DNA of 64,000 nt from positions 234,405 through 298,404 of the forward strand of contig OY969557.1 of NCBI GenBank assembly GCA_963701025.1, given 5' to 3'. The notes below the pieces were generated by a model. That model was not told the origin of the DNA. It searched no databases and was given only the letters and a program-made list of their open reading frames with translations. Position 1 is the stretch's first letter; each line of letters starts with the position of its first letter. The translations under genes and the position numbers were made by a program. Positions 8,148-11,732 of the stretch are shown here, piece by piece. This stretch comes from an uncultured bacterium (lineage in GTDB: Bacteria > Patescibacteriota > Minisyncoccia > Phycocordibacterales > PALSA-1337).

Positions 8148-11100
8148 CTAATTCGTCACGATTGACAGGAGTTTTCCTTTTACGACGATAATCTTCCTAA
8201 TCTCCTTCCCCTCCAGCCATTTCTTGGCTTCCGGCAGGGCTAAGGCGGCGGATTTGATGGCTTCTTCCGGCGTATCCGTCGCGGCCGTGAAGGTTCCGCG
8301 CATTTTTCCATTGATCTGAACGGCTATGGTCGCTTGGCTATCGACTATGAGCTTAGGATCATATTCCGGCCATTCGGATGTGTGAATCGACTTCTTGTTA
8401 CCAAAAGATATCCACAGCTCTTCAGTCACGTGCGGAGCGAACGGGGCTAGGAGTTTCAGATACGATTCAAACTGCGAGCGGCTTATGGCGGGCGACTGAT
8501 CCGGGCCGGACGCGGTTTTTTCAAGTTCATTGAGAGCGATCATGAGCGAGCTTATGGCGGTGTTGAAGCGCATGGCGCCGATATCTTCGGTGACTTTCTT
8601 GATGGTCTTTTGAAGTACGCGATCTATTCTAGTGCCCGCGGGGAGAATATTCTCTTTCGGCTCCTTCTCCAAAGTGTCAACTTTTTTGACGCTTTCGTCT
8701 GGCGACATATGAGACATACTATCCTCCACACGCTCCGCAAGTTTCCACACTCTTTCAATGAATCTCCGCGGCCCGACCATGCTCTCCGTGCTCCAGGCTA
8801 TAGACTGGTCGAACGGTCCCATGAACATCTCATAGATGCGCAGTGTGTCCGCGCCGAATTGTGCCACGATATCGTCGGGATTTACCACATTGCCGAAGCG
8901 CTTGGACATCTTGCGACCGTCTTCGCCCATGATCAATCCGACTGACTGTAATTTCGTGAAAGGTTCGCTGGTTGAGACGACCCCGATATCATTCAAAAAC
9001 TTATGCCAAAAACGGGCGTATATGAGATGCCTCGTGGCGTGCTCCGCGCCGCCGACATACAGGTCTACAGGCGACCAGTATTTCTCTTTCTTCGGGTCTA
9101 CCAATGCTTTTCTATTATTCGGGTCCTCGTAACGGAGATAATACCAGCATGAGCCGGCCCATTGCGGCATGGTGTTCGTCTCGCGCCTTGCCGGACCCTT
9201 GCACTTTGGGCATTTGACGTTGACCCAGCTTTTTATGGCGGCCAAGGGCGACTCGCCCGTGCCTGTCGGCTCATACGACTTGACCTTTGGAAGCTCGACC
9301 GGCAGGTCTTTTTCCGGTACGGGCACGACGCCGCACTTCCCGCAGTGGATGAGCGGTATCGGCTCACCCCAATAGCGCTGGCGGGAGAAGACCCAGTCGC
9401 GAAGCTTGTATTTCATCACCCATCTGCCGCCGACAAAGGCGGTAATGTCTTTTTTGACGGAGTCGGAAGATTTATCAGAAAATGACCCGGAATTTATAGT
9501 AGTGCCTTCGCCGGTGAACGGCCGAGCGCTTCCATCATATATCTTATTAGTCCTATCATACTCAAGCTCCACCGCTCTCGTTACGCCGTTCTTGAGAAAT
9601 ATGATCCAATGATCATAGTCATGCATGTGGTTGTTCTCTTCCCACCATTTAATGATTTTATCAGGTTCCGACCAAACAAGAGTGTAATCTTCGTGTTTCT
9701 CTTGTTTAAGGGATTTAAGAGCATCATCTTGAAGTATAAGCAAGAGACATGTGGCTCGAGCTACGCGGTCGATCTTTTTCTTCGAATTATGATAATGGAC
9801 GAATGCGTCGTCGATCGTTTCCTTATACGAGAAATGGTGCAGGCCGCTCTCTTCCTCGACTTCGCGTAAAATACCCTCAACGAGATTCTCCTGAACACCA
9901 ACGCCGCCGCCGAAAAGATCATACTTCCCCTCGGGTAATCTTCCGAAAGCATATTTTTGCGTATTCGGATCGAATATAACCGCGCAGCCTCCATCTCTTC
10001 GTTCCTCATTGGGACGCTTTGTGCCTGTTTCCCAGGCGATGACCTGTCTTATCGGCAATTTGAATTTTTTGGCAAAAGCGAAATCTCTGTCGTCATGGGC
10101 GGGCACGGCCATGACGGCGCCCGTACCGTAGTCGGCCAGGACATAGTCGGCGATCCAGACGGGCACTTCTTCGTTATTGGCCGGATTGATCGCTTTGACG
10201 CCTTTCAATTCAACGCCGGTCTTTTCTTTATTCGCGTCGGTGCGTTCGATCTCGGTCTCGCTCTTTGCGCGGGCGACATAAGCTTCGATCTCAGCCTTAT
10301 TTTGGGTCTGCGGCAAAAGTACTTGAACCCACGGATGCTCCGGTGCCAACACCAGATAAGTCACGCCAAAGAGCGTGTCGGGACGAGTGGTGTAGACGGT
10401 CACCGACGGCGTAACGGCCTTGAGAATCTCCTTCTTATCCTCCGAAATAGCCAACCGGAAGTCGATCTCCGCCCCTTCGCTCCTGCCGATCCAGTTTCTT
10501 TGGGCCTCTTTGATGGACTCCGGCCAATCAAGGAGCGGCTTGGGCCAGCCCGCGGCCGGATCGCGCATGCGTTCGAGCCATATGGGGAGCTCAGAATTGA
10601 CCATCTTGCCGGGCACGAAATCCTCGGCCACGACCCACAGGATCTCGTTATGAGAAACCTCGCCTTTGGTCATCGATTCAGCGACGATGGGAACTCTGCC
10701 ATCGCTTTTGAGTTCGAAGTATGCAGCCTGGGCTATGGCCACGCGGTTCTCGCCCTTATGTTTGGTGTGATAGTGCGCTTCAGTCGGACCGCCCAATATC
10801 CTCTTGAATTCAAGATCCGTATAGCCTGTCTCCTCGCGGACCTCACGACGCGCGGTCTCTTCGGGTCTCTCGTCCCCCTCAATGCCTCCTATGACCACGG
10901 TATCCCAGCCGAACTTCTTATTGCGGATTATCAAATATTTCTGGGCCTTTGGATCGTAGACAATGGCGTGCGCTACATGACGCTTGACCAAAGGCGCGCC
11001 AGGCTGATGCGGATTGACTTTATCTATGAGCTTCGGCATGACATAGTCGTCCGCGTCGAGATCGCGCAACAAGCGATCCGCGTAATCGGTGATCTTGAGC

Positions 11101-11732
11101 ACCCATTGGCGCAGAGGCTTCTTTTCCACGGGCGTGCCGCAGCGCTCGCACCGGCCATTCTCGACGTCTTCGTTGGCCAGGACTGTCTTATCCGTCGGAC
11201 ACCAATTGACTGGCTCATACGATTCATATGCCAATCCTTTTTTGAAAAGCTGTAGGAATATCCATTGGGTCCACCGATAATAAGCCGGATCAGTCGTATT
11301 GACCTCGCGCGACCAGTCGTAGTCGAAGCCGAGGATCTCCAACTGCTCTTTGAACCGTTGGACATTCTTGGCCACGGCGACCATCGGATTGGTCTTCATC
11401 TTGATGGCGTAATTCTCCGCCGGCAGGCCGAATGCGTCGAAGCCCATGGGGTGCAGGACGTTCATACCCTGCATGCGCTTCATGCGGGAAATGACGTCGG
11501 TGGCGATGTAACCCTTGGGATGGCCGACATGTAGGCCGTCGCCGGACGGATACGGGAACATGTCGAGAATATAAAATTTGTCTTTACTTCCTCCCTTCTC
11601 CTTGCTTCCTGCTTCTTCTGTTCTATATATTTTATCGGCCGCCCACTTCTTCTGCCATTTCTTCTCGATCTTGGCTGGATTATACGGGGCCAGTCTTTGT
11701 GAGGTAGTCTTTTTCGCCATGGATGAAATCAT
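8148..11732 (-). CDS. leuS: Leucyl-tRNA synthetase carrying two in-frame NUDIX-box insertions (1194 aa)
   Basis: Carries HIGH (HVGHPKGY), KMSKS (KMSKRFGN), the CP1 editing motif TTRPDTLFG and [12 protein letters not shown]. It is about 330 aa longer than typical bacterial LeuS. Extra segments lie at about aa 232-398 and 566-772. Each contains a canonical NUDIX box: [23 protein letters not shown] (10818-10886) and [24 protein letters not shown] (9840-9908). Confidence 0.9.
   Translation of the reverse strand: [1194 protein letters not shown]

Follow-up and report, generated by a model that had tools for sequence, protein, structure and literature searches.

The DNA analyzed here, called the window throughout, is a stretch of 64,000 nucleotides from an uncultured bacterium assigned to the Patescibacteriota (GenBank assembly GCA_963701025.1, contig OY969557.1, forward-strand positions 234,405 to 298,404). 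On its minus strand it carries leuS, encoding a bacterial-type leucyl-tRNA synthetase (LeuRS) into which two NUDIX domains, insert A and insert C, are inserted (Table 1). A previous reading of this DNA from its letters alone (the sequence-only reading) had proposed a continuous leuS open reading frame (ORF) of 1194 amino acids (aa), with the HIGH, CP1 editing and KMSKS landmarks intact and with two in-frame NUDIX insertions carrying textbook NUDIX boxes. These proposals were borne out. The ORF listing gave a single ORF with an ATG start and no interruption, all landmarks, the last as a KMSKS-type motif, were located in the protein, two insertions in a complete LeuS were supported by Pfam scores and by the full-length structural model, and both boxes are exact matches to the consensus GX5EX7REUXEEXGU.

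Table 1. Features of the leuS gene and its product, ordered from the N terminus of the protein
Feature	Coordinates in the window	Strand	Residues (aa)	Remarks
leuS ORF	8148..11732	-	1194 in total	Bacterial-type leucyl-tRNA synthetase with two NUDIX inserts; ORF listing, TIGR00396, Pfam, AlphaFold2, Foldseek
HIGH motif HVGH, synthetic site	11520..11531	-	68-71	H68, G70 and H71 invariant in the 75-member family alignment
Insert A (site A), NUDIX, module type 0	10536..11054	-	227-399	Between two helices, after ZN1 and before the strand into CP1
NUDIX box of insert A	10821..10889	-	282-304	Predicted catalytic R296, E297, E300, E301
CP1 threonine-rich motif TTRPDT	10374..10391	-	448-453	Nearly invariant in the 75-member family alignment
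CP1 editing-site motif (GTG..HDxRD type)	10083..10127	-	536-550	D547, R549 and D550 invariant in the family alignment
Insert C (site C), NUDIX, gamma lineage type 3	9522..10037	-	566-737	Distal CP1 loop, after KLPIRQVI
NUDIX box of insert C	9840..9908	-	609-631	Predicted catalytic R623, E624, E627, E628
Native C-terminal part of CP1, PFTGEG...GGRWVM	9414..9521	-	738-773	Aligns with insert-free P0111 (...GRLVNSGKFDGKDSQAVMKEITGFAHGKWVT)
KMSKS-type motif KMSKR	8898..8912	-	941-945	K941, M942 and K944 invariant in the 75-sequence alignment
Lineage-variable stretch, predicted disordered	8631..8720	-	~1005-1034	Before the anticodon-binding domain; predicted local distance difference test score (pLDDT) <50 at aa 1007-1030

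The synthetase core and its two NUDIX inserts

With the NCBIfam model TIGR00396 (leuS_bact), the 1194-aa protein scored 1014 bits against a cut-off of 548.4, in three matched pieces split by the inserts. Pfam detected tRNA-synt_1, tRNA-synt_1_2, Anticodon_1 and NUDIX domains and, inserted after ZN1, the LeuRS editing domain PF13603 (203.7 bits); a further LeuS landmark block of 12 residues begins at aa 778. The full-length AlphaFold2 model, based on an alignment of 75 sequences, had a pLDDT of 86.6 and a predicted template modeling score of 0.76, and its 49 top Foldseek matches were all LeuRS, led by 2bte, 4aq7 and 7nu3. The synthetase part is predicted to work as an ordinary bacterial LeuRS that charges tRNA and edits post-transfer through CP1. 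Insert boundaries and excess length were set against P0111 (810 aa), the closest relative free of inserts. The excess of the window's LeuS amounts to about 384 aa, divided into about 165 aa at the position of insert A (site A), about 164 aa at that of insert C (site C), 28 aa in a disordered Ser/Lys/Glu-rich stretch between the catalytic and anticodon-binding domains, 10 aa at a third position (site B) and a small rest.

Profile searches and structure prediction, the checks that had been proposed for the inserted segments, both identified them as NUDIX domains. Taken alone, inserts A and C scored 48.3 bits (E = 1.3e-12) and 25.6 bits (E = 1.3e-5), respectively, with the Pfam NUDIX profile PF00293, the cut-off of which is 21.1 bits, and most of either insert had a pLDDT above 90 within the full-length model. 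Insert A modeled by itself adopted a clear NUDIX fold, an alpha/beta/alpha sandwich, with a pLDDT of 90.7. Insert C has a C-terminal helical extension (helices at about aa 690-722) that is common to its lineage. The sequence-only reading had placed the first insertion at about 10541-11039 and the second at about 9419-10037. Both locations were right; the boundaries of the first were refined to 10536-11054, and the second had been drawn 36 aa too long by counting in the native part of CP1 at 9414-9521, so that the true insert spans 9522-10037. Inserts A and C share about 31% identity over 96 aa and, judged from their sequences, are not duplicates of one another but belong to separate NUDIX lineages.

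In an alignment of 17 modules of the insert-A type (type 0), all box residues are invariant, and in one of 16 modules of the lineage of insert C (gamma lineage), the R, E, EE and G of the box are. Both alignments also share a conserved K..(N)R stretch and a conserved Tyr downstream of the box, at +17 in type 0 (invariant) and at +16 in the gamma lineage (nearly invariant). The relatives thus keep the NUDIX signature, and the inserts are not the nondescript lineage-specific loops that had been considered as an alternative.

The GC content at third codon positions (GC3) is 0.469 in insert C, 0.661 in insert A and 0.663 in the LeuS core, in which windows of equal size never fall below 0.586. The dip suggests a more recent, foreign origin of insert C. 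It is suggestive only, because the GC3 of the genes in the window spans 0.36-0.79, and as proof of recent horizontal acquisition it was downgraded, 13.5% of comparable windows being equally low. Across the window, GC3 is heterogeneous (standard deviation, 0.115), with the lowest values at 46187-49257, 32242-33733 and 26293-26943; several adjacent low-GC3 genes might represent horizontally acquired islands. An intein was considered and rejected for both inserts. Insert A starts with Ala and ends with Lys-Pro followed by Leu, and insert C starts with Ala and ends with Ala-Arg followed by Pro; the intein hallmarks (Cys, Ser or Thr as the first residue, and terminal His-Asn followed by Cys, Ser or Thr) are absent from both, and Pfam detected only NUDIX there.

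Modular LeuRS across Patescibacteria

An 876-kb contig on record encodes a protein identical to the window's LeuS (P0001), annotated with 1190 aa, 4 fewer than here. Screening a single genome for each GTDB species yielded at least 489 stretches related to insert A. Among the best 80 of these, 78 lie within an ORF with LeuS motifs and one more belongs to a large ORF cut at the contig end; where titles were informative, they named Taylor-, Pacei-, Zambryskii-, Berkel-, Buchanan-, Moranii- and Uhrbacteria or Minisyncoccia, all groups of Patescibacteria. A few automatically labeled bins in this set are called Gammaproteobacteria or Fimivivens, labels that we do not trust. We surveyed the 120 best LeuS homologs, with module sites defined relative to insert-free LeuS. 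At least one extra module was present in 118 of them, and all named ones are metagenome-assembled genomes of Patescibacteria, Paceibacteria, Parcubacteria or Taylorbacteria.

The modules occupy five fixed sites, all of them surface loops or zinc-knuckle tips. Site A, following ...LLxDLD, holds one NUDIX domain (~160 aa) or two in tandem (~328 aa); site B, at the start of CP1, an alpha/beta hydrolase of the Ser_hydrolase family (~180 aa); site C, in the distal CP1 loop, a NUDIX domain (~150-170 aa); site D, within the second zinc knuckle, an HAD_2 domain (212 aa); and site E, within HCxxC...VPVPE, a Ser_hydrolase domain (197 aa) in one protein. From these, about 20 architectures are built, with up to five hydrolase modules and up to three NUDIX domains per protein. 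They include AC (28 proteins, including the LeuS of the window), A (18), C (14) and ABC (13), and the largest is A2BCD (1722 aa). Of the 95 site-A inserts, 83 have at least one fully canonical NUDIX box, as do 71 of the 80 at site C; G-x-S-x-G occurs in 39/39 site-B modules and DxD[GT] in 8/8 site-D modules. Non-NUDIX inserts of about 74-120 aa occupy site C of four proteins (P0071, P0102, P0112 and P0083), where they form small clusters of their own, and site E of P0075, where the segment is without a Pfam match. As read from these sequences, LeuS of Patescibacteria is a modular scaffold for interchangeable hydrolase modules whose catalytic motifs are largely kept.

All-against-all clustering of the 202 NUDIX modules of the family resolved several lineages. 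Type 0, that of insert A, has 67 members, 62 at site A and 5 at site C, with a canonical box in 65. The gamma lineage has 23 members, found at site C only; 12 of these form type 3, to which insert C belongs, and all 12 have a canonical box. The 59 members of type 1 are distributed over site A (30, one of them as the first of a tandem), the second position of site-A tandems (26) and site C (3), and only 25 have the canonical box. The other 34 share a variant, GG.E.GQT.E.AA..EI.EETG, in which the first Glu is replaced by Gln and the Arg is lost (e.g., P0002, P0009 and P0036). The variant box could mark a pseudo-enzyme or an altered chemistry.

Module content is patchy on a neighbor-joining tree of the LeuS core. 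Pairs of proteins 91-92% identical in the core differ by a whole module of 160-177 aa, the module-free partner having a clean loop of 8-10 aa, and insert-free LeuS exists at 77-81% core identity. Among the 120 nearest-neighbor pairs (mean core identity, 0.83), only 36 have an architecture common to both partners; in 70 pairs both partners carry a site-C module, which is of the same type in 18. The closest cores to that of the window (0.78-0.84 identity) carry site-A modules 70-79% identical to the window's but site-C modules only 21-29% identical. The two NUDIX inserts of the window are of kinds under purifying selection. Pairwise identity is 0.65 for type-0 modules versus 0.66 for the LeuS core, and 0.41 for gamma modules versus 0.72 for the core. 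On this comparison, the insert-A type equals the LeuS core in conservation, and insert C lies in a cassette site of fast turnover.

Module uptake is specific to LeuS. The window also encodes a valyl-tRNA synthetase (ValS; 38565-40961, minus strand, 798 aa), which scored 865.5 bits with NF004349 (cut-off, 704). No NUDIX, alpha/beta-hydrolase or HAD domain was detected in any of its 120 best homologs (644-882 aa), which come from the same clade and often from the same contigs. This search could have shown such modules, because the corresponding LeuS search found modules absent from its query, namely those at sites B, D and E. On this result, a general tendency of the class Ia synthetases of this clade to take up modules was rejected. 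As a separate observation, the window's ValS matches positions 2-697 of the 860 of NF004349 and appears to lack the usual C-terminal extension.

When 1.84 billion cluster representatives were searched exhaustively with HMMER, insert A matched only 277 clusters at E <=0.001. The best 150 of these comprise about 102 LeuS proteins or LeuS fragments, 45 short proteins or fragments, two tandem-NUDIX proteins and one fusion. The latter, P0220 (1318 aa), has the order GNAT-NUDIX-GNAT-Peptidase_M17 (leucyl aminopeptidase) and is the only non-LeuS host among these 150. The complete free-standing relatives of insert A have 154-207 aa and all begin with Met, and one of this kind (L073) was read directly from a Parcubacteria genome. 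In an alignment of 37 free-standing relatives, two of which came from a word-index search with insert A, the K..NR stretch is kept and the position of the Tyr is aromatic, often Phe; the box is canonical in 19.

The surroundings of leuS contain an IS30-family element in two copies of 1064 bp (7082-8145 and 44928-45991), 100% identical and in opposite orientation, each coding for a 325-aa transposase (NF033563, 237 bits). Between the first copy and the end of the leuS ORF lie 2 bp; terminal inverted repeats of at least 14 nucleotides were not found in either copy. Beyond this element lie, on the minus strand, a 345-aa protein with the unusual combination of Sigma70 region 4 and HARE-HTH (5963-7000) and, next to it, a 407-aa ORF without a Pfam or NCBIfam match (4732-5955). 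Directly upstream of leuS are genes for the GTPase YchF (12057-13172) and for glucose-6-phosphate dehydrogenase (G6PD_N and G6PD_C; 13177-14577), both on the minus strand as well, the dehydrogenase being perhaps notable in a small Patescibacteria genome. All Rfam matches in the window are tRNAs; near leuS, a leader RNA was not detected. Six tRNA genes, Val-CAC, Pro-GGG, Ala-TGC, Ala-CGC, Pro-CGG and Ala-GGC, are clustered on both strands at 16338-18034, and tRNA-Glu-CTC lies apart at 52600-52674.

Possible roles of the inserted hydrolases

The reading that we favor, and to which we give about an even chance, is that the inserts are catalytically active NUDIX hydrolases and that selection acts on their attachment to LeuRS. 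Selection on the tether is suggested because the arrangement is LeuS-specific and recurs with many independent modules. LeuS would then be a multi-enzyme synthetase with two self-contained NUDIX domains grafted into surface loops, each a putative Mg2+-dependent pyrophosphohydrolase cleaving a nucleoside-5'-polyphosphate-X compound, and the tether would keep these hydrolases co-expressed with LeuRS and physically beside it. The best candidate substrates would be dinucleoside polyphosphates (ApnN) of the diadenosine tetraphosphate (Ap4A) type, made by synthetases from aminoacyl-adenylate and a nucleoside triphosphate; 5'-polyphosphate or capped RNA ends may be a related option. Leucyl-adenylate, which the sequence-only reading had suggested along with Ap4A, other nucleotide by-products and a regulatory role, is to our knowledge not a typical NUDIX substrate. 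We propose ApnN or RNA 5' ends because of the second-tier structural neighbors, the weak matches to Ap4A hydrolases and the Tyr downstream of the box. In cells, Ap4A comes chiefly from synthetases and is broken down by NUDIX enzymes (PMC13627108), which makes the ApnN class attractive. The assignment of an ApnN-type substrate is nevertheless tentative, and we consider it more apt to fail than to hold.

In profile searches against the PDB, the matches were weak and centered on the box, the best being lupin Ap4A hydrolase (E = 4e-5) for type 0 and 2azw (E = 5.5e-8, positions 5-140) for the gamma lineage; the best match with a single sequence was the Ap4A hydrolase of Aquifex. The closest structural neighbor is again 2azw, followed by a second tier consisting mostly of diadenosine polyphosphate (ApnA), polyphosphate or RNA-5'-end hydrolases, with which hydrolysis of an Ap4A-type substrate would be compatible. 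According to the rule of Dunn et al., a Tyr in a downstream loop that contacts the second nucleotide marks ApnA hydrolases (PMC5389931). By sequence, the Tyr downstream of the box aligns with the HY of the Aquifex enzyme, at a spacing only loosely comparable with that in characterized ApnA hydrolases.

Several points weigh against this substrate, and some also against a role bound to LeuRS. The closest structure, 2azw, is uncharacterized. Matches to characterized NUDIX proteins are weak (E = 1e-3 to 1e-8), lie mostly in the box region and include ADP-ribose pyrophosphatases, NudI, MutT1 and Dcp2. Every NCBIfam NUDIX equivalog scored far below its cut-off on this protein, the RppH models, for example, reaching 24.2 bits (cut-off, 116) and 21.2 bits (cut-off, 139). 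The Tyr, of loosely comparable spacing, is often Phe in free-standing relatives, and the companion modules in related LeuS proteins, alpha/beta hydrolases and HAD domains, have no obvious link to Ap4A. LeuRS itself was reportedly, in work of Goerlich et al. from 1982, not among the strong Ap4A producers. Finally, the NUDIX family does not need LeuRS, because members of about 160 aa stand free and another resides in P0220. Assignment of the inserts to the Ap4A-hydrolase subfamily was downgraded, the homology being too weak. The fold and the catalytic machinery are established; since the profile matches are weak and box-centered and the equivalogs fall below cut-off, any substrate named here is a candidate.

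Among the other explanations, the one that survives best is that the modules are passengers: house-cleaning hydrolases that, in very small genomes, were picked up by a gene that is essential, structurally permissive and expressed constitutively, with LeuRS acting as a carrier only. The modules would gain expression without a promoter of their own and would act on general metabolite-damage substrates. All module types do come from classic superfamilies of promiscuous house-cleaning hydrolases, the same NUDIX family occurs free-standing and in the unrelated host P0220, and every site is a surface loop or zinc-knuckle tip. The modules are also easily lost without harm, as indicated by the insert-free LeuS proteins and by the 91-92% identical pairs that are one module apart. 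What this explanation does not account for is the choice of host. ValS has its class Ia and CP1 architecture in common with LeuS, but 0/120 of its homologs took up a module; at least three NUDIX lineages, two alpha/beta-hydrolase sites and one HAD site have converged on LeuS; and LeuS or its fragments make up about 102 of the best 150 of the 277 NUDIX-family clusters. Were permissiveness alone at work, this preference for one host would not be predicted, and it counts against the passengers. We consider them possible but unlikely.

Host specificity would be expected if the cassettes protected LeuRS in cis by destroying, directly at the target, aminoacyl-nucleotide antibiotics that mimic leucyl-adenylate or other LeuRS toxins, with an arms race driving turnover. 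Rapid exchange (same architecture in 36/120 pairs, same site-C type in 18/70), the low identity of the window's site-C module to those of its closest cores (21-29%) and the concentration of several chemically distinct hydrolase classes at one target are in line with this idea. So are the link of the insert-A NUDIX family to GNATs and an M17 peptidase in P0220 and the existence of an NCBIfam model for a GNAT-containing isoleucyl-tRNA synthetase (IleRS; NF040702). Among the enzymes known to confer immunity to antibiotics of this kind are a GNAT, a serine peptidase, a HIT hydrolase and perhaps an HAD hydrolase; in addition, the M17 peptidase PepA processes microcin C, and TM84 targets LeuRS (PMC8323819). 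Against the idea, NUDIX enzymes are not among the immunity proteins named in the passages of that review consulted here. The support is circumstantial throughout, and type 0, the most frequent module, shows strong conservation instead of diversification. We know of no LeuRS-directed natural product from habitats of Patescibacteria, which also speaks against protection. Membership of the modules in a defense system was rejected, as insert A, insert C, one alpha/beta module and one HAD module had no match in PADLOC-DB at E <=0.01. Overall, we regard protection in cis as a long shot.

Still less probable in our estimation is a non-catalytic role, in which the NUDIX folds would serve as ligand sensors or as protein- or RNA-binding platforms that regulate or localize LeuRS. 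The NUDIX clan includes non-enzymatic members (PMC5389931), and the conserved but degenerate box of 34/59 type-1 modules (G x5 Q ..., no Arg), together with the canonical box in only 19/37 free-standing relatives, would suit such a function. However, both inserts of the window have perfect boxes, and the catalytic Arg and Glu are kept in 65/67 type-0 and 12/12 type-3 modules, which is not expected for pure binding. The last alternative, an artefact in the form of a chimeric assembly, a mis-joined ORF, or an intein or intron removed before the mature protein is formed, could appeal to the low GC3 of insert C and to the adjoining IS30 copy, but it is effectively refuted, given that the same architecture and junctions recur in hundreds of independent assemblies from different projects, which excludes the chimera considered in the sequence-only reading, that an identical protein is on record on an 876-kb contig, that the frame and flanking motifs are kept, that both inserts fold confidently in the model, that they have no intein hallmarks, and that low GC3 is common among the genes of the window.

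Implications and nearest known systems

The sequence-only reading knew of no fusion between a synthetase and NUDIX domains. In agreement with this, LeuRS or any other synthetase with NUDIX, alpha/beta-hydrolase or HAD inserts was not found in the searchable full-text literature, which holds few subscription journals, and tRNA synthetases are not mentioned in a comprehensive review of the NUDIX clan (PMC5389931). Such sequences are, however, already public and automatically annotated: one JGI entry is titled 'leucyl-tRNA synthetase/ADP-ribose pyrophosphatase YjhB (NUDIX family)/predicted esterase', and some modular LeuS entries at NCBI are named just 'alpha/beta fold hydrolase' or 'class I tRNA ligase family protein'. 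Given these public annotations and the NCBIfam model for a GNAT-containing IleRS, we regard the accretion of domains by synthetases as already known in kind; the surprise lies in combinatorial, LeuS-specific and fast-exchanging cassettes. Aminoacyl-tRNA synthetases are among the most conserved enzymes, and domain accretion has been discussed mostly for eukaryotes. Here, an essential bacterial synthetase serves as a scaffold across much of a large uncultivated phylum, carrying up to five autonomous hydrolase domains that are exchanged between close relatives.

If the inserted hydrolases prove active and coupled to LeuRS, they would tie translation directly to the clean-up of nucleotides or alarmones, or to the detoxification of inhibitors, in organisms with minimal genomes. 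One may go further and speculate that the cassettes are wired to LeuRS and exchanged as in-cis clean-up or protection of the leucyl-adenylate site, against ApnN by-products or leucyl-adenylate-mimicking toxins, with turnover driven by inter-microbial conflict. This is a quite unlikely extension of our reading, but if true it would establish a new principle, in which an essential synthetase is a docking platform for interchangeable detoxifying enzymes. Should the modules be passengers instead, they would constitute a natural, replicated domain-insertion experiment, showing in which of its loops a class Ia synthetase tolerates inserts of 150-330 aa. They would then also mark recombination within an essential gene, and modular LeuS would be of note as a source of automatic annotation errors.

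Canonical LeuRS, as solved for E. coli (4AQ7/4ARC), T. thermophilus (2BTE) and N. gonorrhoeae (7NU3), has the same fold as the window protein (Foldseek E = 1e-73 to 1e-80; target TM, 0.79-0.85), the same order of core, ZN1, CP1, anticodon-binding and C-terminal domains, and the same HIGH, KMSKS and editing motifs. It differs in length: the solved chains have at most 876 aa, too short for both extra domains, whereas the window protein has two NUDIX domains of about 172 aa each. For the inserts themselves, the nearest structure, 2azw, is a free-standing MutT/nudix protein of 146 aa from Enterococcus faecalis, solved by structural genomics, which is 21% identical and offers no function to transfer. 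The ApnA, polyphosphate and RNA-5'-end NUDIX hydrolases (T. thermophilus Ndx1, the lupin and Aquifex Ap4A hydrolases, RppH, DDP1/DIPP1 and Rv2985) share 14-25% identity with the inserts.

IleRS with a GNAT domain (NF040702) is a precedent, at the level of annotation, for a small-molecule-modifying domain inside a class Ia synthetase. CP1 itself demonstrates that a hydrolytic domain inserted in the Rossmann fold is tolerated. Both involve other superfamilies, GNAT and the CP1 editing fold, than the NUDIX, alpha/beta-hydrolase and HAD modules of LeuS, and we know of no evidence for multiple swappable cassettes in systems of either kind. A NUDIX domain joined to another enzyme is found in NadM-Nudix (2qjo), where the two are fused end to end and the NUDIX domain hydrolyzes ADP-ribose in NAD metabolism. 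Unlike in that fusion, the NUDIX domains of LeuS sit inside the fold of their host, a tRNA synthetase, and form part of a set of modules that occur in varying combinations.

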